Of a DNA stretch of 64,000 nt, positions 20,199 through 56,472 are shown piece after piece. Origin of the DNA: an uncultured Chloroflexia bacterium (lineage in GTDB: Bacteria > Chloroflexota > Limnocylindria > Limnocylindrales > CSP1-4). The position numbers and the translations under genes were made by a program. The stretch is from the NCBI GenBank assembly GCA_963728635.1, contig CAVSKR010000002.1:136140-200139 (forward strand), in the 5' to 3' direction. The first letter of the stretch is position 1. Each line of letters begins with the position of its first letter. The notes below the pieces were generated by a model. The model searched no databases. It was not told the DNA's origin and saw only the letters and a program-made list of their open reading frames with translations.

Positions 20199-21107
20199 CT
20201 AGCCAGGCGGCGGCTCGGGCGTCGGATCCGGCGTGGGATCCGGTGTCGGCTCGGGCGTGGGATCCGGTGTCGGCTCGGGCGTGGGCGCTGGCGTGGGATC
20301 CGGTGTCGGCTCGGGCGTGGGCGCTGGCGTGGGATCCGGTGTCGGCTCGGGCGTGGGATCCGGCGTGGGCGGTGGCGTCGGATCCGGCGTGGGCGGTGGC
20401 GTCGGATCGGGCGTGGGTGGCGGCGTCGGATCGGGCGTGGGTGGCGGGGTCGGGTCGGGCGTGGGTGGCGGGGTCGGGTCGGGCGTGGGCGTCGGAGTGG
20501 ACGTCGGCGTGGGCTGGGGGGTCGGTGCTTGCGTCGGTGGGGGCGGTGGGGTCGGCGTTGGGACGATCGTGGGCGTCGCGACCGGTGGGGTCGCCGTTGG
20601 TGTCGGCGTCGGAGTTGGGATCGGGGTAGCCGTCGGCGTCGGCGTTGGGATCGGGGTAGCTGGCGGCGTGAAACCCGGCGCTGGCGGTGGTGTCGCCATG
20701 CCGCTCGGGGTCGGCGCTGGCGGTGAGGACAAGGGCGCAGGTAGCGGACCAGTCGGTTCCGTGGCCGCTGTCGACCGTATCAATTCAACTGCGGTCACAC
20801 CGGGAGCTGGAGGTGCCAGCGTTGGAGTTGCCGGCGCGGGAGTTGCCGGCGGGAGAGTCGAAGGAGCACGCCCAGGTGTGGGTGTTTCGGGCGTGACGCC
20901 AGCGACCGGCGGGACCAAAAGCTCCGGTCCACGTCCCTCGCCGGACCATGTCGGAGCGGCGAAAACGAATGGAGCAAGGGCGATGACGACGATCAAGCCG
21001 ATGACCGTCCCGACGCCCGTCTGCGTTTCCTTCGACGGCACCGCGACGTCCCCCTTGACGTGCGACCAGTCTAAACCCGCCGGTCTTTTCTCGCGAATCG
21101 CCCCCAT
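20199..21107 (-). CDS. Membrane-anchored Pro/Thr-rich repeat protein
   Basis: ATG at 21107. One [23 protein letters not shown], then a long [10 protein letters not shown] tandem repeat. The start is uncertain, and the ORF extends to 21293. Confidence 0.45.
20213..20500. repeat. Tandem 12/24-nt repeats (GGATCCGGYGTSGGCTCGGGCGTG units) that encode the PT repeats
   Basis: Directly visible. The repeat produces long ORFs on both strands. Confidence 0.8.
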
Positions 21108-21156
21108 CGGGCCCGTTGATGCAACGGCGCCCGAAAGGTCTGCCAGGGTTGGCTGA

Positions 21157-21663
21157 CTAGGTGTTGGGTTCCAGCCCGAGACCGTCTCGCAGGATCCCTG
21201 CCTTATCTGCCACGACGTCTGCGGCGTCGTTGGCGGCTGCCGACAGCGAGATGACCTCTGCAAGGCTCCGGGCACGTGACGCCGCAAGCGCACGTTGCTG
21301 GAACGATTCGTCTGCCTTGATGAGCGTCGCGGCGTCGGCCTGGACTTCAGGCGGGAACGCGATCTTCTTGAGCCCCTCGATGAACTGGCCGTCGGCCCGG
21401 GCGATCAGAGCCCAGTAGCGCTGATGGTCCTCGAGTGACGTCCGACGGCCGTACTGCTCCTCCGCGTGGTCGATGGCGATGTTGTACGGGTCGGCGACAG
21501 CGGAATAGGCGGCGCGAGCCTCTTCGATCGTCAGGAACGAGCCGGAGGGCTTCGGCGTCAGGTCGGCGTGGGACGGTGACGGCCCCACGCTGGCTGGGCC
21601 GGGTAACCCGCCGCACGCGACGACTGGTATCGCGAGGAGGAGCAGCGCCAGCACTCGGCCCAT
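21157..21663 (-). CDS. Lipoprotein, hypothetical
   Basis: ATG at 21663 with AAGAGGA upstream. Signal peptide and lipobox VVAC. The upstream part of the 375-aa ORF is non-coding. Confidence 0.5.
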
Positions 21664-21795: not shown

Positions 21796-22209
21796 ATGAG
21801 TGATACCAAGGCCCCGTCCCCAACCATCAAGTCCGATGCCGAATGGCGTGCGGAGCTCACGCCCGAGCAGTACAGGGTCCTTCGTCAGAAGGGCACCGAG
21901 CGCGCATTCACCGGTGAACTCTGGGATGAGCATCGAGCAGGCGTGTACCGCTGTGCGGGCTGCGATGCCGAGCTCTTCGCCTCCGAGACGAAGTTCGAGT
22001 CTGGCACCGGCTGGCCGAGCTTCTTCGCACCGGCAGATCCCGCGGCGGTCGCGACCGAGACCGATCGCAGCCTCTTCATGACTCGCACCGAGGCCATGTG
22101 CGCTTCCTGCGGAGGGCACCTCGGCCACGTCTTCGACGATGGACCGGATCCGACTGGCCTTCGGTACTGCATCAACTCCGCGGCGCTTAAGCTCGAGCCC
22201 AAGAGCTGA
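21796..22209 (+). CDS. msrB: Peptide-methionine (R)-S-oxide reductase
   Basis: Two CxxC zinc-site motifs and catalytic RYCINSAAL; 137 aa. Confidence 0.9.
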
Positions 22210-41946: not shown

Positions 41947-42636
41947 TCAGTCGCCGCCGCGCCCGAGCGACCGGGACGGGATCGCGAACGCCTGGAACAG
42001 GGCGATCGCCCAGAACGCCAACGTCAGCGGATCCGACTGGAGCGAGTCCATCACCACGCTGACGATGAAGTCCGGTGGCTGGATCAGCTCGATCGTCACG
42101 CCTTCCGCCGCGAGCTCCTGGCCCACGAAATGAGCGACGATGAGGTATTCGCTGACGACGAGCGCAAGGAGCGTCAGGACGACGGAGATCGCGACGAGGA
42201 CGACCGAGCCCCGGCGGTTCGCGCCGAGGACCACCCCGTACCCGACGATGAAGCCCACGGCGATCGCCACGAGCCCGACCTGGTACTGGCTGACGGCAAC
42301 GACGCCATACCAGACGGCGGAGGCGAGGACAGCCGCCACAAGCCCGGCGAGCAGGCCGCCGAGGATGTCGCTCGTGCTCGCCGGCTGACGAGGGGTCGAG
42401 TCGGCTTCGACGGCCGCAGGCGCGCCGGCGAGGGCGCCGGCGTTGAGCGGCGCACTGAGTGCCGCCACCCCGACGCCGCCATCGGCCGCGGCCAGGGTCG
42501 GCGAGGGGCTCGACACCACGCTGAGCGGACGGCCGTCGGGGGCGGCGACGATCTCGCGCGCACCACCACAGCTGTAGCACGAGTTGGCCGAGCCGCGGTT
42601 GATCGATTTGCAGTTCCCGCAGACCCAATCGTTCAC
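41947..42636 (-). CDS. Zinc-ribbon domain membrane protein
   Basis: GTG at 42636 after AAAGGGG. N-terminal CGNC...CYSCGG motif followed by four TM helices. Confidence 0.5.
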   Translation of the reverse strand: MNDWVCGNCKSINRGSANSCYSCGGAREIVAAPDGRPLSVVSSPSPTLAAADGGVGVAALSAPLNAGALAGAPAAVEADSTPRQPASTSDILGGLLAGLVAAVLASAVWYGVVAVSQYQVGLVAIAVGFIVGYGVVLGANRRGSVVLVAISVVLTLLALVVSEYLIVAHFVGQELAAEGVTIELIQPPDFIVSVVMDSLQSDPLTLAFWAIALFQAFAIPSRSLGRGGD

Positions 42637-42760
42637 GAGCGAACCCCTTTGGTTGGACCGGTCTTGGACCGGTCCTGGACCGGGCGGGCCGAGTATGGCG
42701 ACGGCCTTCGGCCCGGACGACCATCCGACGGTCATGGGGTCCACCAGTACACTCGCCGCG

Positions 42761-43633
42761 ATGACCCACCACGTCCAGCGTGAGGCTCCGCCGACGCGTC
42801 ACATCTCGACGCGCTCGATCGTGGCCGTGCGCGGGTCGACGCTCGAGATCCGTGGCGACCGGGTCGTGGGGGAGGCGCCCCTTGAGATTCGTGCCGCAGG
42901 CCCCGACCAGGACCCAGTTGCGGTCGCCGTCACGATGCGCACGCCGGGCTGCGAAGCCGAGCTTGCCGTCGGCTTCCTGCGCACGGAGGGACTGATCGAG
43001 GGTCCCGAGGTGGTCGGCACCGAGAGCGGCGACCCCGTCACGCTCAACCAGCCGGACGACACGATCGTCGTCCGTCTGTCGACTCCCTTCGACGACTCCG
43101 CGGTCGCGGAGCGGCATTTCGTCGCGACCGCCTCGTGCGGGATCTGCGGGAAGGCGTCGATCGACGAGGTCGCGCTGCGCTGCGAGGTCCTGCCCGAGGG
43201 CCCGGTCGTGCCGCGATCCGTGGTGGTCGCCCTGCCCGACCTCCTGCGAGCGGCCCAGAAGGCGTTCGACGAGACGGGCGGGCTGCACGCCGCGGCGCTG
43301 TTCTCCCCACGCGGCGAGTTGATCGTGATCCGCGAGGACGTCGGTCGACACAACGCTCTCGACAAGCTCGTCGGATCGCAGGTCCTCGCCGGAGAGCTGC
43401 CGCTGCACGACAGGATCCTGATGGTCTCGGGTCGGGTCAGCTTCGAGATCGTCCAGAAGGCCGCGGTCGCGGGGGTGCCGATCGTGGCAGCGGTTTCGGC
43501 ACCCTCGGATCTGGCGGTCGAGACCGCGGAGCGGCTCGGTGTGACCCTGGTCGGGTTCCTGCGCGGTGACAGGTTCAACGTCTACAGCCACGACCGCCGG
43601 ATCGATCTGCGCGACCTGACCGGCTGGGGCTGA
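42761..43633 (+). CDS. fdhD: Formate dehydrogenase accessory sulfurtransferase FdhD
   Basis: ATG at 42761. Catalytic motif SCGICGK and GRHNALDKL. Confidence 0.8.
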   Translation: MTHHVQREAPPTRHISTRSIVAVRGSTLEIRGDRVVGEAPLEIRAAGPDQDPVAVAVTMRTPGCEAELAVGFLRTEGLIEGPEVVGTESGDPVTLNQPDDTIVVRLSTPFDDSAVAERHFVATASCGICGKASIDEVALRCEVLPEGPVVPRSVVVALPDLLRAAQKAFDETGGLHAAALFSPRGELIVIREDVGRHNALDKLVGSQVLAGELPLHDRILMVSGRVSFEIVQKAAVAGVPIVAAVSAPSDLAVETAERLGVTLVGFLRGDRFNVYSHDRRIDLRDLTGWG

Positions 43634-43664: not shown

Positions 43665-44117
43665 TCACGCGTCCGTTTGACCTATCAGGTCAACGGCCCT
43701 CGCGAACCAGCTCGTCGCTTCGTCGATCGAGATCCGGATCATCGGCCGGTGCTCGAGGTCGTGATCGGCGTACTGCGGATACTTCGCGCGCAGCGCGACG
43801 ACAACGGCGTCCGCGGATCCGACCAGCGCCGCGCGTCCGTCGATCCGCAGCCACGCCAGCTCGGACCAGTCCTCGGACCAGCGGTCGACCAGCACGGTCA
43901 CGTCGGGTCGTGCCTCGATATCACGGACGCGGGCGAGCCCGCGAGGATCCGAAATCGACTTGGGTTTCTGGTCGATCGGCGACCACAGAACGCCATCCAT
44001 CATGACGAAACAGATCGGTACGAGGCGGGGTCGGCCGTCCTGGGCCACGGTCGCCAGCGTCCCCGTTCGCGCCGACTCCAGCAAGGCGCGCTCAACCGGC
44101 GTCAGGACGGAACTCAT
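43665..44117 (-). CDS. Pyridoxamine 5'-phosphate oxidase family / F420-dependent PPOX-class protein
   Basis: 150-aa split-barrel fold protein. Confidence 0.6.
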   Translation of the reverse strand: MSSVLTPVERALLESARTGTLATVAQDGRPRLVPICFVMMDGVLWSPIDQKPKSISDPRGLARVRDIEARPDVTVLVDRWSEDWSELAWLRIDGRAALVGSADAVVVALRAKYPQYADHDLEHRPMIRISIDEATSWFARAVDLIGQTDA

Positions 44118-44258: not shown

Positions 44259-45389
44259 CTATTCGCCCACGTTCGCGACATCGACGCCCTCTTGTCGGGG
44301 CCGCTCGTTCACGAATTCGAAGCCGAACCGGCCCTTGATGCACAGGTGGCCGTCCGTTATCGATGAGTCGAGCGGCGAGGTGACCTTGAGGATGCGTTCG
44401 TCCTGGACGTGCAGGTCGACCGCGCAGCCGACGCCGCAATACGGGCAGATCGTCGATGTCACTGTCTGGGCGGACTCGTCCCATGTTCCGGCTTCGCGCA
44501 TGTCGTACTCGGGTTTGGCCATCAGGGCGCCGGTCGGGCATACCCCGATGCAGTTGCCGCAGTACACGCAGGCCGACTCCGGGAGCGGAACAGCCTGCTC
44601 GGTCGAGATCCGCGCGTCGAACCCGCGACCCGCGACCGCGATCGCGAATGTGTTCTGGGCATCCTCGCCGCACGCCTCGACGCACTTGTAGCAGAGGATG
44701 CACTTGGCGTAGTCGCGCACATAGAGGTCGTTGTCGATCTTCGTCGGCTGGGCCACGGTCGCCGCGTACGCCGCCTCGTCGGCTGTCGGGGCGTGGTGGT
44801 GCCCCGGCTCGTGGGCGTCGCGCTCGCCGGCTGCTGCCGCCACCGCCGGCGCGCCGAACCGCCCCGGATCCGCCCCATACCGATCCATGTACGCGTGGAT
44901 CGTGCCGTCGGGTGCGGCCGGACCGGCGAGCGACACGTCGACCGAGGAGCCCAGGAACTCCAGGACGACCTTGCGCGATGTGCGCACGCGCTCCGAGTCG
45001 GTCTGGACCTCCATCCCCGGCTCGACCGGTCGCGAGCACGCGGGGGCGAGCACCCGGGATCCCGTGACCTCGACCACGCACACGCGACAGACGTTGACCG
45101 GGGTGAGGTTGTCGGCGTAGCACAGCGTGGGTGTGTCGATCCCGAGGACCCGGCACGCGCCGAGGATCGTCGTCCCGGCAGGGACCGTGACGGATCGCCC
45201 ATCGACCGTCAGCTCGACGGGCGGTGGCGCCGCGACCGGCGGCGGTGCGGGCGGCCTCGAGGGTCGGGCCGGCGGACGCAGGATGATCTCGGTCAGCGGT
45301 TGTGCCGCCGGCGCCTGCCCGGCATGCGGCGAGTCGGGATCCGGCGCCGGGTCGCGGCTCATCGACAGCCCGGTCGTGTCCTCGCTCAC
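44259..45389 (-). CDS. fdsA: Fe-S subunit corresponding to the N-terminal third of formate dehydrogenase alpha: 2Fe-2S ferredoxin domain, 4Fe-4S domains, and the CPYCGVGC...LCIKG cluster motif
   Basis: NuoG-like N-terminus. It ends just after the Mo-domain FS0 Cys motif. Its ATG overlaps the fdsGB stop (ATGA). Confidence 0.7.
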   Translation of the reverse strand: MSEDTTGLSMSRDPAPDPDSPHAGQAPAAQPLTEIILRPPARPSRPPAPPPVAAPPPVELTVDGRSVTVPAGTTILGACRVLGIDTPTLCYADNLTPVNVCRVCVVEVTGSRVLAPACSRPVEPGMEVQTDSERVRTSRKVVLEFLGSSVDVSLAGPAAPDGTIHAYMDRYGADPGRFGAPAVAAAAGERDAHEPGHHHAPTADEAAYAATVAQPTKIDNDLYVRDYAKCILCYKCVEACGEDAQNTFAIAVAGRGFDARISTEQAVPLPESACVYCGNCIGVCPTGALMAKPEYDMREAGTWDESAQTVTSTICPYCGVGCAVDLHVQDERILKVTSPLDSSITDGHLCIKGRFGFEFVNERPRQEGVDVANVGE

Positions 45390-47233
45390 AGCGCCACCAG
45401 ATCCGGCTGGCGCAAAGCCGATTCGATCGCCGACGATGCGGTCTGCCCGAGCCCGCAGATCGAGGCGTCGCGCATGGCCTGCCCGATCTCGCGCAGCAGT
45501 GTCAGCTCCTCGTCACGCGACCGGATGTGCGATCCGGCGGCGAGTCGAGCCAGCAGCTCTTCCTGGCGGACGCTCCCGACACGGCACGGCACGCACTGAC
45601 CGCACGACTCGTCACGGAAGAAGCGGGCGATGCGCCGCAGCGTGTCGACGAGGTCCACGGTCTCATCGAAGACCATGATCACGCCGGACCCGAGCGTCGC
45701 GCCGGCCGCGCGGGTCGCCTCGAACGTCAGGGGCATGTCGAGGGACCCCGGACCGACGAACACCCCGGCAGCACCGCCGAGCAGGATCGCCCGGATGCCT
45801 CGCCCGCCGGGCACACCACCCGCCAGCTCGATCAAGTCGCCGAGGGTGGCCCCGAACTCGACCTCGAAGACGCCCGGTCGGGCGACATGCCCGGACAGGC
45901 AGAACAGCCGCGGCCCGGTGGACCCGTCGGTCCCGATCCGCGCGTACGCCTCGCCCCCCATCTCGATGATGAGCGGCACGTTGACCAGCGTCTCGACGTT
46001 GTTCACGACGGTCGGCTTCCCGAAGAGGCCGACTTCGACCGGGAACGGCGGCTTGTTGCGGGGTTCCCCGCGCTTGCCCTCGATCGACTCGAAGAGCGCG
46101 GTCTCCTCGCCGCAGATGTAGGCACCGGCGCCGCGCCGGACCTCGATATCGAACGAGAAGCCGGAGCCCATGATGTCGGGCCCGAGCAGGTTCGCAGCCC
46201 GGGCCGCATCGATCGCGCCGCGGATCCCCGCCTCGGCCTCCGGGTACTCGCCGCGGATGTAGATGTAGCCATGGCCCGCATCGGTCGCGAGGGCCGCGAT
46301 CGCCATCGCCTCGACGACCGCGAACGGGTCGCCCTCGAGCAGGACCCGATCCTTGAACGTGCCCGGCTCGGACTCGTCGGCGTTGCAGACCAGGTAGTGC
46401 GGCTGTGCGCTCTGTGATGCGACCGCCGCCCACTTGCGACCCGTGGGGAAGGCGGCGCCGCCGCGGCCCATCAGCTTGGACGCCGTCACCTCCGCGATGA
46501 CCGCCGCGCCGCCCATCGCGATGGCTTTCGTGAGGGCCTCGTAGCCGCCGTGGGCGCGATAGTCCGCGAGCGAGGCAGGGTCGACCACGCCAACGCGTCG
46601 GAGCAGCCGCAGGGACGGATCCTTGGTCTGCGGCAGGGGTGGCAGCCGGCGTGTCACCGCGGCCCCGTCGAGACGCGCGACGACTCCGGCCGCGTCGATC
46701 GGCGCCGCGCTGCCCACGGTCGAGTGCTCACCGGCGGTCGTGACCATGGCCGCGGGGGCAAGGTCGCACAGCCCGAGGCACGGCGACCGCTGCCAGCCCA
46801 CCTGGCCATCTCGCACCGCCGTCCCCTCCGGACCGACGGATCGAGCCAGGTCCTCGCAGATCCCCTCGGCGCCCGCGAGCCGGCACGCGATGTCGTCGCA
46901 GACATGGGCCATGACCGGCGGTCGCGGCGTCGTCGCGTAGAGCGCGTAGAACGTGGCGACGCCATACGCCTCGGCCGGTGGGACGGCGAGGCGCCGCGAG
47001 ATGTAGTTCAGGGCGGGCTGGCTGATCCAGCCGATCCGGTCCTGGACCGCGTGGAGAGCCGGCAGGAGCTGTGACCGCCGGGCCCGGATCGCATGACCGC
47101 CACGGGCGGCGTGGCCGTCGACGCCTGGACGACGTGCGCCGCCGACCCAACCCGATTCGGGCGGCCCCAGCACGCTGTCGATCGCGGCCCGTTCGGCGGG
47201 GGAGGCCAGGGGCCCGATGACGTGCAGGTCCAT
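45386..47233 (-). CDS. fdsGB: NAD-dependent formate dehydrogenase diaphorase subunit, a NuoE-like plus NuoF-like fusion (FdsG-FdsB)
   Basis: N-terminal thioredoxin-like 2Fe-2S (CDDIACRLAG), then FMN/NADH site GRGGAAFPTG and 4Fe-4S CGQCVPCR. Confidence 0.85.
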   Translation of the reverse strand: MDLHVIGPLASPAERAAIDSVLGPPESGWVGGARRPGVDGHAARGGHAIRARRSQLLPALHAVQDRIGWISQPALNYISRRLAVPPAEAYGVATFYALYATTPRPPVMAHVCDDIACRLAGAEGICEDLARSVGPEGTAVRDGQVGWQRSPCLGLCDLAPAAMVTTAGEHSTVGSAAPIDAAGVVARLDGAAVTRRLPPLPQTKDPSLRLLRRVGVVDPASLADYRAHGGYEALTKAIAMGGAAVIAEVTASKLMGRGGAAFPTGRKWAAVASQSAQPHYLVCNADESEPGTFKDRVLLEGDPFAVVEAMAIAALATDAGHGYIYIRGEYPEAEAGIRGAIDAARAANLLGPDIMGSGFSFDIEVRRGAGAYICGEETALFESIEGKRGEPRNKPPFPVEVGLFGKPTVVNNVETLVNVPLIIEMGGEAYARIGTDGSTGPRLFCLSGHVARPGVFEVEFGATLGDLIELAGGVPGGRGIRAILLGGAAGVFVGPGSLDMPLTFEATRAAGATLGSGVIMVFDETVDLVDTLRRIARFFRDESCGQCVPCRVGSVRQEELLARLAAGSHIRSRDEELTLLREIGQAMRDASICGLGQTASSAIESALRQPDLVAL

Positions 47234-47262
47234 CGATTCGAGTGTAGCGGTCCGATCTTCCG

Positions 47263-48114
47263 TCAGACGCGGAGGACTCGGACGTCGAGAGGCTGGGTGC
47301 GACCGCGCAGCGTCAGATTTCGCGTCTCGAGCGATCGATCGAGATCGGCCGCCTCAGCGGAGGCCGCGCTCACGAGGATCTCGCCCGGTCCGGCGGCCGA
47401 AGCGAGACGAGCGGTGACGTTGACGTTGTCGCCCAGCGCCGTGAAGTCCGTCACGGTGTCGCCGACCGTGCCGACGTAGGCGATCCCGGTATGCACGCCG
47501 GCGCCGACCGGGATCCACGGACCATCGGGGCTTCCGTGACCGGTGGCCCTGAGCAATTCGCGCGCCGCCTCGATCGCGGCGCGCGCATGGTCCGAACCCG
47601 CCAGCGCGGGAAGGAACAGCGCGACCACCTCGTCACCCACGAACTTGTCGACCACCGCGTCGCGCGCCACCAGCACGCTGGTCGCCTCGTGATAGAAGCG
47701 ATCGAGCAGCCGCCGGAAGGCATTCGCGCCCATGGTCTCGGCGAGACCCGTTGAGCCGCGGACGTCGGCGAACAGCATGCTCAGTTCGATCTCCGCGCCA
47801 CCACGGCTCTTCTCGAGCTGCTTGAAGCACAAGCCGCAGATGCTCGGGTTCTTCACCCATGGACCGCGGTCCAGCAGTCGCATGATCGGCGCGCCAAATC
47901 CGCCGAACGGGGCGGCGCACAGCTTGCAGCGCGGTGAGCTCGGGATCATCCGGAAGAAGCCGCGCCCCGCGACGAAGCCGGGGTCGTTCCCGCTCAGGAG
48001 CGCCAGCCACTGCGGGTCCGAGACGAAGGTCGGTTCCGCTACGGGGTCGGCCGGCTCGTCCGGCGCCGGATCCTCGACGTCGGCGGGCTGCGCGGATCCG
48101 CGCTGATCCATCAC
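47263..48114 (-). CDS. Class III adenylate/guanylate cyclase with N-terminal zinc-ribbon
   Basis: CKLC...CGLC ribbon followed by the cyclase core (FADVRGST, FVGDEVVALF, GDTVT). Confidence 0.7.
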   Translation of the reverse strand: MMDQRGSAQPADVEDPAPDEPADPVAEPTFVSDPQWLALLSGNDPGFVAGRGFFRMIPSSPRCKLCAAPFGGFGAPIMRLLDRGPWVKNPSICGLCFKQLEKSRGGAEIELSMLFADVRGSTGLAETMGANAFRRLLDRFYHEATSVLVARDAVVDKFVGDEVVALFLPALAGSDHARAAIEAARELLRATGHGSPDGPWIPVGAGVHTGIAYVGTVGDTVTDFTALGDNVNVTARLASAAGPGEILVSAASAEAADLDRSLETRNLTLRGRTQPLDVRVLRV

Positions 48115-48953
48115 CGGGCCGTGCCTGCGACAGTGCCTGTCATTTCCTCGCCACCGGACGCCGTGGCGATGCAGGCGATCTCACGGTCGCCTCGCGCCCA
48201 GGTCTCCTCACTTGGATACACGTAGAACATCTCCAGGCTCGAGGAATCGAAGTCGATGCCAACGTACTCCCCGAAGAGTGGCAGGCATCGGTCGTTGGCT
48301 GTGGTGCTGATCGTCGACATGCCCGGGAAGGTGGCACCGCTGGCCGCGTCTGCAACGGTGTGAACGCCGACGACTTCGCCGCGGTGGGGGTCCGCACACG
48401 GGACGGTGCGGATCGCGTCCGAGTCAGTGGTTTCGCCAGTGAAGTTGCCGTCGACGCACTCACCGGTGGCATAGCTCGGGATCGGGTTCAGCGCGGTCGC
48501 GGCCAGATAGGCGAGGGCGAACCACGCGAGAGCGGCGAGCACGGTCACACCGACCATCGCCCCGATCCGGACCGGCGTTCTCAGGCTGCTCCGCGAGATC
48601 GCGATGTTGCCCGCGGCCGCTGCGCCACCGAACGCGCCGCCGAGCAGACCGCCGACCGCGACGAGCCCGACCGGGAGGAAGGCAAGCACGGTCTCCCAGA
48701 GTGGTCGAGGTGGGTCCAGCGCGAACTGGCTGCCGTCATCGGCGATCGCGACGAGCCCGTTCCGCGTGGACTTCAGCGTGAACGCACGAGGCGTGCCATC
48801 GGACGTGACGATCGAGTACGTGTCCTTGCGAGCGGGATCGCGAGATATCTCGCTGCCGTCGACCCTGACGTGTGGCTTCGAGAACGCTCCGCGCTCGATG
48901 ACGATGTCCGGGCCGTCCGTGCCGGGCAGTCGGATCGTGGTCGACCGTGCCAC
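48111..48953 (-). CDS. Membrane protein with Cys-containing extracytoplasmic domain (DUF4190/septum-formation-like)
   Basis: Two TM helices and a C-terminal domain with four Cys residues. The stop overlaps the cyclase start. Confidence 0.5.
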   Translation of the reverse strand: MARSTTIRLPGTDGPDIVIERGAFSKPHVRVDGSEISRDPARKDTYSIVTSDGTPRAFTLKSTRNGLVAIADDGSQFALDPPRPLWETVLAFLPVGLVAVGGLLGGAFGGAAAAGNIAISRSSLRTPVRIGAMVGVTVLAALAWFALAYLAATALNPIPSYATGECVDGNFTGETTDSDAIRTVPCADPHRGEVVGVHTVADAASGATFPGMSTISTTANDRCLPLFGEYVGIDFDSSSLEMFYVYPSEETWARGDREIACIATASGGEEMTGTVAGTAR

Positions 48954-48958
48954 TGACG

Positions 48959-50872
48959 TCAGGCCGGGACCGGGGATTCGAGCTTCTCGATCCGGATCGC
49001 CGTGGCCTTGAACTCCGCGGTGCCCGACTTCGGGTCGGTCGCATCGATCGTGAGCAGGTTCGTCGCCACGTCGTCCTGGAAGTGGAGCGTCATGAACGTG
49101 AGCCCCGGCCGCAGGGACGGGTCGATCCGGACCGGGACCTCGACGTGGCCGCGACGCGACACGACCCGCACGCGCTGCCCCTCGACGAGACCGTACGCGT
49201 CGGCGTCTTCCGGCGAGATGTCGAGCGACTCGCCGCGGCGGAGGGGGGACGTGTACCCGGCCGTCTGGACACCCGTGTTGTACGAGTCGAGCCGGCGTCC
49301 CGTCGTGAGGCGGATCGGGTATTCGTCGGTGAGCTTGTCGACCGGCGGGTCGTGGTCGACCGGGACGAACGGCACCCGATTGCCCGGCACCGGGTCTTCC
49401 CAGAGTCGACTGTGGAGGAACAGCTCACCGGGGTGGTTCTCGTCGTAGCACGGCCACTGGAGGCCGCCGAGCTCCTCGAGCCGTCGATAGGACATGCCGG
49501 CGTGCACGGGCGACAGCGCGCGGACCTCGTCCCACACACGCTCCGCGACCGCCTCGCCCCAGTCCGCGCCCATCCGGTTCGCCAGCTCGAAGATGATGGC
49601 GAGGTCGTCACGCGCCCCGTCGGGCGGAGCGACCGCGGCGCGGACGCGCTGGACGCGTCGTTCCGAGTTCGTGACGGTCCCCTCCGCCTCGGCCCACGCC
49701 GCAGATGCGGGCAGGACAACGTCCGCGATCTCCGCGGTCCGCGTCAGGAAGAGGTCCTGCACCACGAGCATGTCGAGCCCCTCGAGCAGCCCGATCGCGC
49801 GGTGCTGGTCGGCCTCGGACTGGACCGGGTTCTCACCGATGCAGTACACGGCGGTCAGGTCGCCCCGCTCCATCGCATCGAACATGCCGGACAGATGCCA
49901 GCCACGCTGCGGCGGGATCGCCACGCCCCAGGCTGCGTCGAACTTGGCGCGCAGCTCGTCGTTCTCGACGTGCTGGAAACCGGGCAGTCGATCGGGCAGC
50001 GCACCCATGTCGCCGCCGCCCTGGACGTTGTTCTGGCCACGGAGCGGGTTGACGCCGCTGCCGTACCGACCCACATGCCCGGTCAGCAGCACCAGGGAGA
50101 TCAGGGCAAGAACGTTGTCGACCGCGTTGTGGTGCTCCGTGATCCCGAGGGTCCAGCAGATCATCGCCCGCGGTGCGGTGGCCAGCGCGTGGGCCAATTC
50201 CCGGATCGCCTCGGCCGGGACGCCGGTCTCCTTCTCGGCGTACTCGAGCGTGTACGACTCGACCTTGGCCTTGTAGGCGTCGAAGTCGACCGTCGCCCGC
50301 TCGATGAACTCGCGGTTCTCGAGACCCGCGGCGATGATCTCGCGCGCGACCGCGTTGGCCAGGGCGATGTCGCTGCCGACGTCGAGGCCGAGCCAGCTAT
50401 CTGCCCACTCCGCGCTCGACGTCCGGCGCGGGTCGACGGCGTACAGTCGGGCGCCCTTGTGCACGGCCTTGAGGACGTGATGGAAGAAGATCGGATGCGT
50501 CTCGCGGGCGTTGCTGCCCCAGAGGACGATCAGGTCGGTGTCCTCGGCCTCACGGTATGAGCTTGTGCCGCCACCGGCACCGAACACGGTCGCCAGACCG
50601 GCGACACTCGGGGCGTGTCAGGTGCGGTTGCAGCTGTCGATGTTGTTGCTGCCCAGGACCGCCCGGCTGAACTTCTGGGCTGCGAAGTTGACCTCGTTGG
50701 TCGCCTTGCTGCAGCTGAAGGTGCCGAAGGTCGTCGGGCCGTGAGCCGCCTTCGCGGCCTGGAACCCGGCGACCACCTTGTCCAGCGCTTCGTCCCAGGT
50801 CGCGGGTCGAAGCTCGCCGCCCTTCGTGTCGCGGACGAGGGGCTGGGTCAGACGTACGTAGGGTCGCGCCAC
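48959..50872 (-). CDS. fdhA: Selenocysteine-containing formate dehydrogenase catalytic (molybdopterin) subunit; the in-frame TGA at 50618-50620 is read as Sec
   Basis: GTG at about 50872 after GGAGGG. Residues before the TGA (MARPYVRLTQPL...NIDSCNRT) and after it (HAPSVAGLATVFG...) form one continuous conserved FDH sequence. The ORF track splits it into 50618..51139 and 48959..50587. Confidence 0.75.
50585..50620 (-). other. UGA-Sec codon plus bacterial SECIS hairpin (GUCGCC-GGUCU-GGCGAC)
   Basis: The GGUCUG apical loop sits 19-24 nt 3' of the UGA, the same position as in the E. coli fdhF SECIS, and it encodes the conserved VAGL. Confidence 0.7.
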
Positions 50873-50967
50873 GCGGGGCCCTCCTGCGGAAGACGACCGT
50901 CCGAGTGTACCCCTTGACGACCGGCCCTTCGGACGCCACCCTCCGCATCGTTCATGCGAGGGGACAC

Positions 50968-51558
50968 ATGACGACCGACGCCGCCACAGCCGATCTGCAC
51001 GAACCGCCGCCGCTCTTCTGCTACCGCCATCCGGACCGCGAGACGTGGGTCCGCTGTGGTCGCTGCGACCAGCCGATCTGCACGCGCTGCACGATGCAGG
51101 GCCCGGTCGGGTTGCGCTGCAGGTCGTGCGGCAAGCCATCGCGCGACGCCCTCGCGTCGCTCAAGCCGAACCAGATCGCGATCGGCCTGGCTGTGGCCAC
51201 CGGGCTCGGCGCGGTCGTGGGCTACTTCGGGGCGCAGTTCGGGCTCTTCATGATCATCGTTGGCTTCTTCGCCGGCACCATCATCGCGGAGGCGCTCGAC
51301 CGGACGATCGGCATCAAGCGCGGGCCACGGATCCTCGCCATCGCGATCACCGGGATCGTGGTCGGCAGCGTGCTCGGCGCGTCGCTGTCGCTCGTCGGAT
51401 TGTGGCGGGAGATGCTGGAGTTCGCGGCGATGGCCGAGGCGGCCGGGGAGTCTGGCTATCCGGCCCCGTCGCTCGACGTGTACCTCCTCCAGTACGTGCC
51501 CTCCGGGCTGATCAGCATGGGCGCGACGATCGTCGGCGCGTACGTCCGACTGCGCTAG
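50968..51558 (+). CDS. Zinc-ribbon (B-box-like) membrane protein
   Basis: ATG at 50968. CxxC-x-CxxC-x-CxxC cluster followed by TM helices. Confidence 0.45.
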   Translation: MTTDAATADLHEPPPLFCYRHPDRETWVRCGRCDQPICTRCTMQGPVGLRCRSCGKPSRDALASLKPNQIAIGLAVATGLGAVVGYFGAQFGLFMIIVGFFAGTIIAEALDRTIGIKRGPRILAIAITGIVVGSVLGASLSLVGLWREMLEFAAMAEAAGESGYPAPSLDVYLLQYVPSGLISMGATIVGAYVRLR

Positions 51559-52604
51559 GCCAGCGCGACTCCCGAACCGACCTCGACGCCGCCGATCCGC
51601 CAGGCGTCGACCCCGGCCGCGTGAAGCTGGTCGAGGACGCCGCCGAGCCGGTCTTCTGCGAGGGCCGCCAGGAGCCCACCGCCCGTCTGCGGGTCATGGG
51701 CGAGGGTGACCAATTCGCTCGGGACCTCCTCCAGGACGTCGAGCTCTTCCGCGACGAAGCGCCGGTTGTGCGCGGCGCCACCCGTCTCGACGCCGGCCGT
51801 GACCAGCTCGACCGCCCCGGACAGCGCCGGCAGGGCCCCCGCCTCGAACACGAGCCGCGCGCCTGAGGCTCGCGCCATCTCGAGTCCATGCCCGAGCAGC
51901 CCAAACCCGGTGACGTCGGTCGCCGCGGTCACGCCGTTGGCCACGAGCACCTCGGACGCCGCCCGGTTGAGGGTGCGCATCCCCTCGATCGCGGCGGCCA
52001 TGTCGGCCTCCCGGGTCTGACCCTGGCGCGCACCGCTCACCAACAGCCCGGTACCGAGGGGCTTGGTCAGGATCAGAACGTCGCCGGGTCGCGCCCCGCC
52101 CTTGCGCAGAAGCCGGTCGGGGTGCGCCGCGCCGATGACGGCCAGCCCGTACTTCGGCTCCGGGTCGCGGATCGTGTGGCCGCCCGCCAGCGTGCCGCCA
52201 GCCTCGCGCACCTTGGCCGACGCGCCGCCGAACACTTCGGCGAGCACGTCGCGCGGCAGCTCCTCGGGGAATGCCGCGATCGACAGGGCGAAGAGGACGC
52301 GGCCACCCATCGCGAACACGTCGCTCATCGCGTTCGCGGCCGCGATTTCGCCGAACGTCCATGCGTCGTCGACCAGCGGCGGGAAGAAGTCCAGCGTGCC
52401 GATGATCGCGAGGTCGTCGCTGACCCGGTACGCGGCGGCGTCGTCCGGCGGGTTGAGACCGGCGATCAGCTCGTCCGGGGCTGCCTCGGCGCCCAGACCC
52501 GCCAGCGCATCGGTGAGCAGGTCCGCACCGAGCTTCGCCGCGCAGCCGCCGCAGTCGGTCAGCGTCGTGAGGCGCAACGCGGGGATGTCGGACAGGGTCG
52601 TCAC
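51555..52604 (-). CDS. selD: Selenide, water dikinase
   Basis: About 349 aa. Motif LTDCGGCAAK (Cys form) in the N-terminal glycine-rich loop, with AIR-synthase-related domains. Confidence 0.8.
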   Translation of the reverse strand: MTTLSDIPALRLTTLTDCGGCAAKLGADLLTDALAGLGAEAAPDELIAGLNPPDDAAAYRVSDDLAIIGTLDFFPPLVDDAWTFGEIAAANAMSDVFAMGGRVLFALSIAAFPEELPRDVLAEVFGGASAKVREAGGTLAGGHTIRDPEPKYGLAVIGAAHPDRLLRKGGARPGDVLILTKPLGTGLLVSGARQGQTREADMAAAIEGMRTLNRAASEVLVANGVTAATDVTGFGLLGHGLEMARASGARLVFEAGALPALSGAVELVTAGVETGGAAHNRRFVAEELDVLEEVPSELVTLAHDPQTGGGLLAALAEDRLGGVLDQLHAAGVDAWRIGGVEVGSGVALA

Positions 52605-52640: not shown

Positions 52641-52738
52641 CGGGAGCGGTCGGGCCCCGGTGGGTCCCCCGGTCTTCAAAACCGGTGACGCCGCGCTCGG
52701 CGTGGCGTGGTGGGTTCGACTCCCACGCGTTCCCGCCA
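52641..52738 (+). tRNA. selC: tRNA-Sec (anticodon TCA)
   Basis: Anticodon stem CCGGT/ACCGG with loop CTTCAAA. Long variable arm. T-arm GTGGG-TTCGACT-CCCAC. Extended acceptor stem and encoded CCA. Confidence 0.75.
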
Positions 52739-52748
52739 CGGAGGATCG

Positions 52749-54119
52749 ATGTCGTCGAAGCCGGTCGTCCACCCGCGTCCGCCCAGCGTCGACCATCTGT
52801 TGACGTCGATCCGACTGCGGGAGGGCTTCGAGCGCGAGCATGAGGTCGTTGCCGACGCCGCCCGCGCGGTGATCGAAGAGGAGCGGGCGCGCATCACGGC
52901 CGGGGAGGACCCGAGGCTGGTCGGCGCGCTCGTCGATGACGTGGTGGCACACCTGGACGCATCCATCTCAGCGGCCGCTGACGTCGTCATCAACGCGACC
53001 GGCGTGATCGTCCACACCAACCTGGGCCGCGCACCGTGGTCGTGGCTCGCCAACGCCGCAGTCGGCCAAACGACCGATTATCTGCTGCTCGAGATCGATC
53101 GGGCGACCGGCCGCCGGGGTCGACGATTTCGACAGGCCGAGGAACACCTTGTCGCCCTCACTGGCGCCGACGACGCCCTGGTGACGAACAACAACGCGGC
53201 GGCCCTCGTGCTGGCCGTCGGCTTGGCGGGTCGCGGGGGTGTCGTCGTGTCGCGCGGCGAGCTCGTCGAGATCGGCGGCGGCGTTCGCATCCCCGACATC
53301 ATCCGGCGTGCCGGAGCGAAGCTCATCGAGGTCGGCACGACCAATCGGACGCGTGCCGAGGACTTCGAGGCTCCCCTTGCCGAGGGTCGAGCGCGTGCGG
53401 TGCTCCGCGTCCACCCGTCGAACTTCACGATCGCCGGATTCACGGAATCGCCCGACCCCGGCCGAGTGGCCGAGCTGGCGCACCAGCATGGCGCTTTCGT
53501 CGTCGACGATCTCGGATCAGGCGCACTGCTTCCGACCGAGCGCTTCGGGCTTGCGCACGAACCGACGCCCAGCGAGCGCCTGGCGGCCGGATCCGACATC
53601 GTGACGTTCAGCGGCGACAAGCTCGTCGGGGGGCCGCAGGCCGGGCTGGTGGTCGGCCGCGGCGACCTCATCGCGAGGATGCGGCGCGATCCGCTCGCAC
53701 GCGCGATGCGCCCCGACAAGGCGACCCTGCTGGGCGTGGCGGCGACCCTAGGGCTGTACCGCGCCGGGCTCGCGACGACGCACATCCCGGTGTGGATGAT
53801 GATCGCGACGCCCCTCGAGGCACTCCGCGCCCGCGCCGAGCGGGTGGCCGGAAGGATCGGATCCGCGGCGTCGGTCACCGAGATGCAGTCGACGATCGGC
53901 GGCGGCAGCCTGCCCGGCGAGACGATCCCATCTGTCGGCGTGGCGGTTCGGGCTCGGTCTGCCGACGATCTCCTGGCACGGATCCGGCAATGCGGTCGCC
54001 ACGCCGTCATCGGTCGAATCGAGGCGGATCGTGTCCTGCTCGACCTGCGGACGGTCCATCCCGATCACGACCGCCGACTCGCGACCACGCTCAGGGTCGC
54101 GCTCGCTGCCGGACGATGA
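52749..54119 (+). CDS. selA: L-seryl-tRNA(Sec) selenium transferase
   Basis: ATG at 52749 after GGAGGA. PLP fold with Lys motif [13 protein letters not shown]. Confidence 0.85.
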
Positions 54120-55885
54120 CCATCGTCGTCGGCACTGCGGGCCACATCGACCACGGGAAGACCACGCTGCTGCGCGCGCTGACCGGCATCGACGCGGACC
54201 GGTTGCCGGAGGAGCGCCGGCGGGGGATGACGATCGATATCGGCTACGCCCATCTGGACGCCGATGACGGCACGACGATCGACTTCGTCGACGTGCCCGG
54301 ACACGACAAGCTGGTCGGCAACATGCTCGTCGGGGCAGGCGAGGTCCACGCCGCCATGCTTGTCGTGGCCGCAGACGACGGGCCGCGCGCCCAGACGCTC
54401 GAGCACCTCGCGCTGCTCGACGCGTTCGGGATAGCGCCTGCGCTCGCGGTCGTGACGAAGATCGACGCCGTTCCGGCTGACCGGACGGAGGAGGTACGGC
54501 GGCAGGTCGCCGCGCTCCTCGCGCCGACCTCCATGAGTGATGCGCCCGTCCTCGCCGCATCCAGCGCGACCGGCGAGGGCGTGGCTGCGGTTCGCGCGGC
54601 GCTCATCACGCTCGGCGGTCGCGTTCGTCTCGGGGCGGGTCCACCGACGCTCGCCATCGACCGGGTCTTCACGATGAAGGGCCGCGGCGTGGTCGTGACC
54701 GGCACGCTTCGCGGCGGGCCACTCGCCCGAGGCGACGCGCTCCGCACCGTCCCGGGCGAGCGCAACGTGCGGATCCGCGAGATCCAGGTCCATGGCGTCA
54801 CCGTGGAGCGAGTCGTCGAGGGTGGTCGGACCGCGCTGAACCTGGCCGGTGTGGCGGAAGCCGAGCTGCATCGCGGGATGGTGCTGACCGCCGACCCGAC
54901 GGTCACGGCGACGGACCGATTCCTCGCCGCGTTGCGGCCGGTGGTCGCCGACCGCACGCGGGGCCGCGCCCATGCCGGCACGGCAGCCGTCGATGCGACA
55001 GTCGGGCGGAGCGGCCGCGACGCCCTGATGCTGCCTGACGGGCGAGCCGCCGGGACCGTGCGTCTTGCCGCGCCGATCGCGCTCCGGCCGGGCGATCGCT
55101 TCGTTCTGAGGCGTGGCGGCGAGATCGAACCGGTGGGTGGTGTGGTCCTCGACACGACGCCACCGCGTGGGATCTCCCGGCGACGGCAGACGCCCAAACG
55201 AGTCGCGGCGCTTGGGGACCTGGTCGGCGCGCCGGATCCACGACTCGACCTCCACGGAGCCGCAGGCGGTGGGCTGGCTCCCGATGTGCACCTGCTCGCC
55301 GCGGACGCGGCGATCGCTGCCGTCGATCCTGAGGCCCCGCTCTCGATGGTTCGCAACGCGGTGGCCCGAGCACTTCGTCGCGCGGTCACGATCCGGCGCG
55401 ATGAGGCGGCCGCCGCCGCGGCTGCCGTCGTCGACCGGCTGATCCGCGAGGAGCGACTGGTTCGCGACGGCGAGATCGTTCGACGACCCGGTGTGCGTGC
55501 GGCGGTCCCCGACCCGGCACTCGTTGCCGCGATGGACAGGCTCGAGTCGGCAGTCGCTGGCGTCGCACCCCCGCCCCTGGCCGAGGCGGCGCGCGCCGTC
55601 GGCTGTCCGCCGGCCGGCATTCGAGAGCTCGAGCGAGCCGGACGCATCGTCGTCCTCGATGCCGACCTGGCCTACGCGGCGGGCACCTACGGCGACCTGA
55701 CCGATCGGGCCTTGACGATGGCCGCAAGGGCACCGCTCACGCCCGCCGCCTTCCGCGACGCCACCGGGACCAGCCGCAAGTACGTCATGGCCATCCTCGA
55801 GGATCTCGACCGCCGGGCGCTCCTGCGGCGGACGCCGGCGGGGCACGTACCGGGACCGAAGGCGCCGGCCGTCGCCGGGCGATGA
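54116..55885 (+). CDS. selB: Selenocysteine-specific translation elongation factor
   Basis: ATGA overlap with selA. GTPase motifs [16 protein letters not shown] and TKID, plus C-terminal winged-helix domains. Confidence 0.85.
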
Positions 55886-56472
55886 CCGAGCGCATCGCAG
55901 CGATCGTCCTGGCGGGCGGTCGCTCGACCCGCTTCGGGCGCGACAAGCTCGCCGAGCCGATCAACGGTCAGCGGATGCTCGATCGAGCGATCGCGGCCGT
56001 CGCGCAGGTTGCTGATGTTGTGATGGTCATCGCGCCGCCGGATTCGGTGCCGGCGATCACGTCGCAGGTACAGATGCTCCACGATGCCCGCGCGTTCGAA
56101 GGGCCCCTCGCCGGCCTCGCGACCGGCCTCGATGCGATGGACCCGACCATCGAACGCGTCATCGTGGTCGGTGGCGACATGCCGACGCTCGTGCCCGCCG
56201 TGCTGCGCCGGCTCATCGATGCGCTCGAGACGCACGAAGCGGCCGCGCTGGCCGACGCAGCCGGTCCGCGGCCGCTCCCCATCGCGCTCCGCCGGTCCGT
56301 TGCCGGCCCGGTCGTCGGCCGACTGCTGGCTGGAGGCGAGCGGCGGCTTCGCGCGCTGGTCGACGAACTGCAGACGTTCTTTATCCCGGCCGCGGACTGG
56401 CTGAGAGACGACCCGACGGGCGCGACCTTGGCCGACGTCGACACGCCGGCCGACTTGCCAGACAGGAGCTGA
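55882..56472 (+). CDS. mobA: Molybdenum cofactor guanylyltransferase
   Basis: ATGA overlap with selB. N-terminal LAGGRSTRFG. Confidence 0.75.
   Translation: MTERIAAIVLAGGRSTRFGRDKLAEPINGQRMLDRAIAAVAQVADVVMVIAPPDSVPAITSQVQMLHDARAFEGPLAGLATGLDAMDPTIERVIVVGGDMPTLVPAVLRRLIDALETHEAAALADAAGPRPLPIALRRSVAGPVVGRLLAGGERRLRALVDELQTFFIPAADWLRDDPTGATLADVDTPADLPDRS

Follow-up and report, generated by a model that had tools for sequence, protein, structure and literature searches.

The 64,000-nt window analyzed here (about 70% G+C; positions 136,140 to 200,139 of contig CAVSKR010000002.1, GenBank assembly GCA_963728635.1, from an uncultured Limnocylindria bacterium of the phylum Chloroflexota) carries on its minus strand a compact locus in which the alpha subunit of a putative formate dehydrogenase (FDH) is encoded in two separate pieces. 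Five tightly packed open reading frames (ORFs) run from position 50872 to 44259, which agrees with the coordinates given in a first-pass annotation of the sequence, and both the coordinates and the Pfam domains bear out its observation that the alpha subunit is split into two same-strand ORFs, with the molybdenum (Mo) part first and the iron-sulfur (Fe-S) part last. The first gene, fdhA(Mo) (48959-50872), encodes the predicted catalytic subunit that would hold the Mo/W bis(pyranopterin guanine dinucleotide) (bisPGD) cofactor. This protein of 637 amino acids (aa) has selenocysteine (Sec) at residue 85 and matches the Pfam families Molybdopterin (7e-69) and Molydop_binding (2e-26), with no Molybdop_Fe4S4 domain at the reporting threshold of E <= 0.01, and its GTG start codon is preceded by GGAGGG at a spacing of 6 nt rather than the 7 nt of the earlier annotation, which had the motif and the start codon right. 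Following a 5-nt gap is a gene for a 280-aa membrane protein (48111-48953), previously described as DUF4190-like, whose C-terminal half resembles Septum_form (PF13845, 3e-16); this is its only Pfam match at that threshold, and it has no NCBIfam match. Its stop codon overlaps, in the sequence GTGATG, the start of a gene for a soluble 283-aa class IIIb-type adenylate cyclase (47263-48114; Guanylate_cyc, 2e-13) that begins with a zinc-ribbon-like CxxC...CxxC segment. A gap of 29 nt separates the cyclase gene from fdsGB (45386-47233), which encodes a 615-aa fusion of a NuoE-like [2Fe-2S] protein to a NuoF-like diaphorase with predicted sites for flavin mononucleotide (FMN), NAD(H) and a [4Fe-4S] cluster (Pfam 2Fe-2S_thioredx, Complex1_51K, SLBB and NADH_4Fe-4S). 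The stop codon of fdsGB in turn overlaps, in the sequence GTGA, the start of fdsA(FeS) (44259-45389). The 376-aa product of this last gene carries a [2Fe-2S] domain, two ferredoxin-type [4Fe-4S] domains and, at its C-terminus, the domain of the [4Fe-4S] cluster FS0 with a conserved lysine, K352 (Fer2_4, Fer4_7 and, at residues 309-361, Molybdop_Fe4S4). The tight packing noted earlier holds for the 5-nt and 29-nt gaps, with overlaps that are GTGA and GTGATG rather than ATGA. The G+C content at third codon positions (GC3) of 0.82-0.91 is typical for coding sequence in this genome, and no second Mo-type gene is found within the window. Consensus scans, uninformative for this phylum, gave no sigma-70-like promoter and only a chance level of terminator-like sites. 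Since the genes overlap or nearly abut and terminators are not in excess, a single transcript over the five genes is plausible in this genome, and, as far as gene spacing can indicate, it probably includes the cyclase and membrane-protein genes along with those of the FDH; for the family of split enzymes as a whole, a single transcript is clearly not required.

The position of the break relative to fused enzymes is precise. Residues 51-364 of the Fe-S protein align to residues 18-307 of the single-chain FdsA of Rhodobacter capsulatus (PDB 6tg9, chain A, 958 aa), and residues 7-632 of the Mo protein align to residues 308-935 of the same chain, which places the break between FdsA residues 307 and 308 and makes the two proteins colinear with the fused subunit. 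In the alignment with E. coli FdhH, the Mo protein corresponds to FdhH 61-688. The same point is located by the 672-position model TIGR01591, in which residues 313-365 of the Fe-S protein cover positions 1-53 and residues 7-628 of the Mo protein cover positions 53-672. The equivalog cut-off of this model, 666.25 bits, is reached by neither part (646.7 bits for the Mo part and 53.5 bits for the Fe-S part) and is passed only by a rough sum of the two scores. The Mo part thus begins exactly after FS0, as had been proposed. The suggestion that an RP dipeptide at both ends of the break marks a clean fission did not survive comparison, as relatives carry sequences such as AKPY, PKSY or PKEY at one end and NERP, QNRG or NQKK at the other; moreover, the two RP dipeptides do not fall at the same place in the fused enzyme, and we regard their presence as coincidence.

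The distribution of active-site features over the two polypeptides defines the unusual character of this predicted enzyme. By sequence and by alignment to FdhH and FdsA, the Mo protein holds Sec85-His86 and the arginine of the motif LRGQNNVQG, and the FS0 motif CPYCGVGC...C-I-K-GRFG is invariant and lies on the Fe-S polypeptide, where its lysine is K352 in LCIKGRFG. In E. coli FDH-H the counterpart of K352, Lys44, sits between FS0 and the pterin and is both strictly conserved and essential, with only the Lys-to-Arg variant retaining any activity (PMC12176258). Encoded as they are on the Fe-S subunit, FS0 and K352 must therefore both act in trans on the Mo subunit. A further feature, which had escaped the earlier reading of the sequence, is the absence of the ligands of FdsA cluster A4 (His117, Cys121, Cys124 and Cys130), the aligned segment being free of cysteine here and the region holding no cysteine in 79 of 83 family sequences. 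Cluster A4 of the R. capsulatus enzyme (RcFDH) is off-pathway and located at the dimer interface (PMC7171172), and on this alignment the split-FDH family has lost it. The segment that replaces the A4 region (residues ~140-225 of the Fe-S protein) is itself well conserved, with the pattern VLEFLGSSVD.S ... RYGA.P.RYG ... ERD..EPGHHH, in which the histidines at 197-199 are present in 77, 82 and 67 of the 83 sequences, respectively. A conserved Pro-rich motif (PPARPSRPP or PPPRPS) that is not in fused FdsA is found at residues ~30-55.

To place the locus among its relatives, one genome from each GTDB species was scanned with the Fe-S protein, and of the more than 550 relatives found in this way the best 80 loci were inspected; together with two long-read contigs these form a set of 82 loci that was searched by tblastn with the five proteins of the window. 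Taxon labels are those given by the depositors of the metagenome-assembled genomes (MAGs), and a few resemble binning errors. Limnocylindria and further members of the Chloroflexota are represented among the 80 genome loci, as are Acidobacteriota, Actinomycetota and Planctomycetota. The order Mo, fdsGB, Fe-S on one strand was found wherever a Mo gene could be paired with fdsGB (65 of the 82 loci), and in most of the remaining 17 the contig ends before the expected position of the Mo gene. Mo orthologues in the 65 loci are 66-93% identical, and their start codon lies, in nearly all loci, no more than about 10 codons upstream of the motif RLTxPLVR, with sequence further upstream unconserved. At the other side of the break, the Fe-S ORF stops ~5-50 residues past the last FS0 cysteine in 81 of the 82 loci, and all 83 sequences keep each of the 16 cysteines that ligate the [2Fe-2S] cluster, both [4Fe-4S] clusters and FS0. 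Two long-read contigs of megabase scale, with Fe-S genes 87-90% identical to that of the window, show the order Mo, cyclase, fdsGB, Fe-S with selA, selB, selD and fdhD alongside, and in both the gene caller has cut the Mo gene at its UGA codon. Protein searches give the same picture, with the best 120 of 120 clusters for the Fe-S protein (80-94% identity) being 341-485 aa long and ending in PF04879 without PF00384, under generic database labels such as '2Fe-2S iron-sulfur cluster-binding protein', 'YjgC' and 'HndD'. A search from a Planctomycetota (Isosphaeraceae) orthologue returned the same architecture and matched only MAG-derived or unnamed proteins, and in a search of 1.84 billion representatives, mostly metagenomic fragments, fused relatives begin at ~35-46% identity to the Fe-S protein. 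The split reported for this locus is thus real and, rather than being particular to this genome, is family-wide in the best 80 loci; these comparisons indicate that it defines an old and widespread family. They likewise indicate that Mo, NuoEF, Fe-S is the ancestral gene order of that family, which extends over Chloroflexota, Acidobacteriota, Actinomycetota and Planctomycetota. Fe-S proteins from different phyla are 64-72% identical, which suggests that the operon has spread horizontally, and the permuted order could have arisen if fdsGB-fdsA was duplicated in tandem and the outer halves were then lost. In one locus (L047:9517-14561, minus strand) a second FDH of the canonical fused type, at 32-48% identity, lies a few kb from the split operon on the same contig, and the two are therefore distinct families and not alleles. 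Three loci labelled Saccharimonadales, Binatia and Verrucomicrobiia (L004, L018 and L042) have Fe-S genes 72-84% identical to the Limnocylindria type in a Limnocylindria-like context and probably represent binning contamination rather than true hosts. The Fe-S frame of another locus (L031) runs on to 1147 aa, which may reflect a frameshift in the long-read assembly.

Selenocysteine use is as constant as the split. The UGA codon at 50618-50620 (minus strand) encodes residue 85 of the Mo gene within the motif SCNRT-U-HAPSVAGL, and TGA occupies the same active-site position in all 65 Mo genes. It is followed by a candidate selenocysteine insertion sequence (SECIS) element (50568-50615, minus strand), whose core hairpin, GUCGCC-GGUCU-GGCGAC at 50605-50589, lies 15-32 nt after the UGA. 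An RNAalifold comparison of 28 diverse loci showed an invariant GGUCU loop in this 17-nt hairpin and a stem with G-U pairs and a few compensatory changes; we take the hairpin to resemble the SECIS element of E. coli fdhF. The decoding machinery is encoded beside the operon. It comprises selC, the tRNA-Sec gene with anticodon UCA (52642-52738, plus strand; detected by ARAGORN and by Rfam RF01852 at 71.7 bits), selA (52707-54119, plus strand; Pfam SelA, 5e-111), for which the start codon is uncertain and the listed ORF start overlaps selC, and selB for the Sec-specific elongation factor (54122-55885, plus strand; GTP_EFTU and SelB-wing_3). The selenophosphate synthetase gene selD, of the Cys type (CGGCAAK), lies on the minus strand at 51555-52604 (AIRS and AIRS_C), with 52604 an estimated start. 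With a UGA codon, a SECIS element, tRNA-Sec, SelA, SelB and SelD all found, the Mo gene is, on genomic grounds, a bacterial selenoprotein gene.

On this basis we consider it highly likely that the locus encodes a conserved, NAD-linked, heterotrimeric Sec-FDH with FS0 and its essential lysine supplied in trans, and that the cyclase and membrane-protein genes are cargo. The enzyme would be cytoplasmic and NAD(H)-linked, a Mo/W-bisPGD FDH with Sec that belongs to the lineage of FdsABG, Methylobacterium extorquens FDH1 (MeFDH1) and complex-I NuoEFG, and its alpha subunit would be made as two polypeptides. The 637-aa Mo/Sec subunit would provide the active site and have no Fe-S cluster of its own, the 376-aa subunit would hold the [2Fe-2S] cluster, the two [4Fe-4S] clusters and FS0, and the NuoE-NuoF fusion would contribute a [2Fe-2S] cluster, FMN, a [4Fe-4S] cluster and the NAD(H) site. 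The heterotrimer is predicted to assemble by docking of the C-terminal FS0 domain of the Fe-S subunit onto the Mo subunit at the place taken by the N-terminal domain in fused enzymes. Electrons would then pass from formate to Mo/Sec, FS0, the two [4Fe-4S] clusters, the [2Fe-2S] cluster, the NuoF [4Fe-4S] cluster, FMN and NAD+, or in the reverse direction, a path modelled on RcFDH, in which A4 and the FdsG cluster are off-pathway (PMC7171172). Two other types of enzyme were considered and rejected. An electron-bifurcating HydABC-like enzyme does not fit, as the NuoF-like subunit ends right after its NADH_4Fe-4S domain without C-terminal ferredoxin domains and is therefore not of the bifurcating HydB type, and neither does a periplasmic FDH exported by the twin-arginine pathway, as the N-terminus is short and lacks a twin-arginine signal.

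Comparison with known systems clarifies what is shared and what is distinct. The soluble NAD+-dependent Mo-FDHs of R. capsulatus and Cupriavidus necator, FdsABG(D) (PDB 6tg9 and 6vw7), have the same predicted cofactor chain, consisting of bisPGD, FS0 (A1), two [4Fe-4S] clusters (A2 and A3), a [2Fe-2S] cluster (A5), a NuoF-like [4Fe-4S] cluster, FMN and NAD; the two window proteins are jointly colinear with FdsA 18-935, and an FdhD/FdsC-type maturation gene lies nearby. These systems differ in that the alpha subunit is one fused chain, whereas here it is two ORFs with three genes between them and FS0 and the lysine are in trans; in gene order, which is fdsG-B-A there and Mo, GB, Fe-S here; in the use of an active-site Cys rather than Sec; in the presence of A4 ligands, absent here; and in having FdsG and FdsB as separate proteins rather than a fusion. 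Two of the features absent here, the one-chain alpha subunit and cluster A4, are defining for the FdsABG and MeFDH1 families, which the predicted enzyme otherwise resembles in its mode of action. No FdsD was seen at the window locus, where it was not searched for specifically. A solved precedent for the fused diaphorase is found in the W-dependent alpha-beta enzyme MeFDH1 (PDB 7e5z and 7vw6), whose beta subunit is likewise a merged NuoE and NuoF (PMC10478512); fdsGB matches it in one stretch (7e5z_B 48-562), with a PDB match to FdsB too. MeFDH1 is also NAD-linked and cytoplasmic, as predicted here, but its alpha subunit is a single fused chain of 989-995 aa with Cys, in contrast to the split Sec enzyme of the window. 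Formylmethanofuran dehydrogenase FwdB/FwdD offers a precedent for a split Mo/W-bisPGD enzyme; it is cut before the C-terminal Molydop_binding domain, and FwdB keeps its own FS0. In the HoxU/HoxY-type split, a precedent for the division of NuoG-like modules, HoxU corresponds to the N-terminal 250 aa of FdsA, without FS0 (PMC7171172; PMC10478512). Both of these are cut elsewhere, whereas the break described here falls after FS0, between the Pfam domains Molybdop_Fe4S4 and Molybdopterin. Thousands of automatic annotations exist for the separate pieces. In a literature search of incomplete coverage we found no published description of a split FdsA/FdhA, of FS0 on a separate polypeptide or of a Limnocylindria FDH, and we know of no characterised family member with FS0 and the pterin cofactor on different chains.

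The junction between the Mo gene and fdsGB, which in the window is occupied by the membrane protein and the cyclase, varies in a lineage-dependent manner. All 27 loci with labels other than Chloroflexota (Acidobacteriota, Actinomycetota, Planctomycetota or unclassified) have a gap of 7-284 nt, whereas among the 38 Chloroflexota-like loci it is no more than 203 nt in eight and holds an insert of 0.6-4.9 kb in 30. The 65 candidate ORFs within these inserts match 37 different Pfam families, including GYD (6), Na_Ca_ex (4), DUF5946 (4), RraB (3), methyltransferases, serine dehydratase, adenosine deaminase, formamidase, MFS and subtilase; cyclases account for only two of these ORFs, one each in L001 and L002. 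The formamidase of one relative (FmdA_AmdA, E 2e-65) is a formate-releasing enzyme and could be a functionally meaningful neighbor of an FDH. At least eight insert genes with solid Pfam matches, in seven loci, lie on the opposite strand, and the Mo gene therefore cannot be co-transcribed with fdsGB and the Fe-S gene in those genomes. Because the junction holds unrelated cargo in Limnocylindria but is tight in non-Chloroflexota loci, it is an insertion hotspot in the class, and the membrane protein and cyclase are lineage-specific cargo rather than part of the enzyme. In related genomes the fission and the gene order are kept, with the cyclase and membrane-protein pair confined to a narrow clade. 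Besides the window, in-operon orthologues of the cyclase occur only in L001, L002, L083, L084, L085 and L119, and a homologue of the membrane protein occurs only in L083 (60% identity). L001 and L002 lack it: upstream of the cyclase, where the window and L083 have the membrane protein, L002 has a cupin and L001 nothing. A metagenome scan returned 80 loci with cyclase homologues, among which only the four closest (L083, L084, L085 and L119, at 61-79% identity) adjoin Mo or fdsGB, the other 76 (48-61% identity) having no FDH gene on their contigs, although these are short in many cases. Judged from its residues, the cyclase appears to be active. Its best PDB match is Spirulina platensis CyaC (1wc0), with which the whole catalytic domain aligns, including the two Asp residues that bind metal, the Lys that recognizes the substrate, the Thr typical of subclass IIIb, and the transition-state Asn and Arg; the window protein has the short CxxC...CxxC N-terminus and not the sensor domains of CyaC. 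Regardless of gene context, 74 of 75 family members have this Thr. Subclass IIIb is defined by this Thr, which replaces the substrate Asp, and the prokaryotic class IIIb cyclases tested by 2009 all respond to CO2 or inorganic carbon (PMC2613629).

These properties of the cyclase bear on the proposal of the first-pass annotation that the split enzyme is physically linked to a cyclic-nucleotide signalling module, which stands insofar as a cyclase does lie within the operon in the window and about six relatives and is otherwise largely unsupported, other cargo taking its place elsewhere. In its functional form, this explanation holds that the FDH is coupled to the module, for example through a CO2/bicarbonate-sensing cyclase that, together with the membrane protein, reports FDH-linked CO2 as cyclic AMP (cAMP). 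Consistent with it are the packed, partly overlapping genes on one strand with no excess of terminators, the retention of the cyclase between Mo and GB in seven contigs, the intact catalytic residues with the class IIIb Thr, the response of tested class IIIb enzymes to inorganic carbon, and the fact that an FDH makes or consumes CO2. It is countered by a junction that accommodates unrelated genes elsewhere in the Limnocylindria and holds none beyond that class, by the many cyclase homologues without an FDH gene on their (often short) contigs that carry the Thr regardless, by a partner gene that varies between membrane protein, cupin and none, and by the faster divergence of the cyclase, at 61-79% identity against 85-93% for the FDH subunits. 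We therefore regard a functional coupling as unlikely, and the more specific scenario, in which the operon of the window's clade captured a cyclase responsive to CO2 or inorganic carbon along with the membrane protein, so that FDH turnover with CO2 release, or CO2 availability, is converted into a cAMP signal, as somewhat less likely still. If true, it would represent a metabolic enzyme with a built-in product sensor. That the locus represents an undescribed FDH family, with FS0 in trans, Sec throughout and a permuted gene order, common in dominant soil phyla, is more likely than the reading that centers on a CO2-sensing cyclase.

A different role for the diaphorase is suggested by the presence of FS0 on a separate polypeptide: GB and the Fe-S protein could form a general diaphorase or adaptor whose FS0 docks onto various molybdopterin partners, the Mo/Sec protein being one client or using another redox partner altogether. 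Three loci (L030, L031 and L054) have the fdsGB-FeS pair without a Mo/Sec gene within 8-10 kb on either side, so that the pair may sometimes work with a distant or different partner, and the opposite-strand genes between Mo and GB-FeS in several Limnocylindria point the same way. Against this, a Mo gene could be paired with GB on the same strand in 65 of the 82 loci, most of the others being contigs that end early, and Mo abuts GB in every one of the 27 non-Chloroflexota loci; in addition, the Mo gene encodes no Fe-S cluster, so that FS0 is needed from elsewhere, and the window has no other Mo-type gene to serve. We consider this explanation very improbable. Negligible in our estimation is the explanation that an assembly or rearrangement error, or the breakage of a fused fdsA into pseudogene fragments, produced the layout, which has nothing in its favor beyond the unusual layout itself. 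The arrangement recurs in 65 independently assembled contigs, among them long-read contigs of 1-3 Mb, GC3 is coding-typical, and the complete set of sel genes is conserved; pseudogene decay and misassembly are excluded because the layout, the ligands, the start and stop positions, the Sec codon and the SECIS element are conserved. The comparisons thus support a functional arrangement, as first proposed, with Sec, SECIS and ligands maintained over four phyla. Several observations nevertheless weigh against the interpretation of the locus as a self-contained NAD-linked Sec-FDH with unrelated cargo. The three loci without a nearby Mo gene are among them, and the inspection covered only the best 80 of the more than 550 relatives found in genomes. 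Tight packing and the retention of the cyclase over about seven contigs leave room for a clade-specific regulatory link. The assignment of NAD+ as acceptor, rather than NADP+ or another molecule, derives only from homology to NuoF, and a single-chain AlphaFold2 model of the Fe-S protein, built on a 34-sequence alignment, was too poor to use, with a mean predicted local distance difference test score of 54.5 and a predicted template modeling score of 0.50.

The Sec-FDH proposed here would have implications for how this class of enzymes is understood. It would mean that FS0 and the essential pterin-side lysine can come from a polypeptide other than the one that holds the cofactor, so that nature already offers a split site for CO2-reducing catalysts, a class much studied for engineering, and the family suggests that such an enzyme can do without A4, the cluster at the dimer interface. 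Those NAD-dependent, oxygen-tolerant FDHs that have been characterised use Cys, and all examined members of the split family use Sec, in abundant soil lineages (Limnocylindria, Acidobacteriota, Actinomycetota and Planctomycetota), which makes the family a case in which to examine Sec use and the metabolism of formate or CO2 in soil. Metagenomic surveys probably under-count this FDH, because its pieces carry generic labels and its Mo gene is cut at the UGA codon by gene callers. The cargo-filled junction between Mo and NuoEF in Limnocylindria is, for its part, a tidy example of an insertion hotspot within an operon.

Genes with likely roles in maturation are found on both sides of the operon. 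A mobA-like gene, for the attachment of the guanine dinucleotide to molybdopterin, is located at 55882-56472 on the plus strand (NTP_transf_3, 3e-31), and fdhD, for an FdsC-like sulfurtransferase or chaperone, at 42584-43633 on the same strand (FdhD-NarQ, 5e-65). The FdhD domain begins at residue 97 of the ORF, and the true start is probably downstream of 42584; fdhD neighbors the FDH operon in 50 of the 82 loci. Between fdhD and the operon is a gene for a PNPOx-like flavin-binding protein (43665-44117, minus strand; PNPOx_N, 2e-14), a gene present near the operon in 22 loci and often so in Limnocylindria. The genes selA, selB and selD are neighbors of the operon in Limnocylindria, as they are in some loci of Actinomycetota (L045 and L051), and are not within 10 kb of it in the Acidobacteriota and Planctomycetota loci. 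One long-read contig (L001:3866-4925) has its selD annotated in two pieces, an ORF of 136 aa with AIRS and one of 230 aa with AIRS_C, probably owing to a frameshift error, since the selD of the window is intact and of the Cys type. Divergent from the operon, at 50905-51558 on the plus strand, is a gene for a 217-aa protein with a Cys-rich N-terminus (CYRHPDRETWVRCGRCDQPICTRC...CRSCG) and, after it, hydrophobic stretches; the protein matches no family of Pfam or NCBIfam, is conserved beside the operon in L002 (85%) and is also found in L074 (45%). Elsewhere in the window, a 364-aa Pro/Thr-rich protein (20199-21293, minus strand) is built on tandem repeats of 24 and 36 nt that explain a spike in GC skew (0.157) in the 20-22 kb bin, and the ORF that comes after it, at 21796-22209 on the plus strand, encodes what we take, from reading the sequence only, to be an MsrB-like protein.

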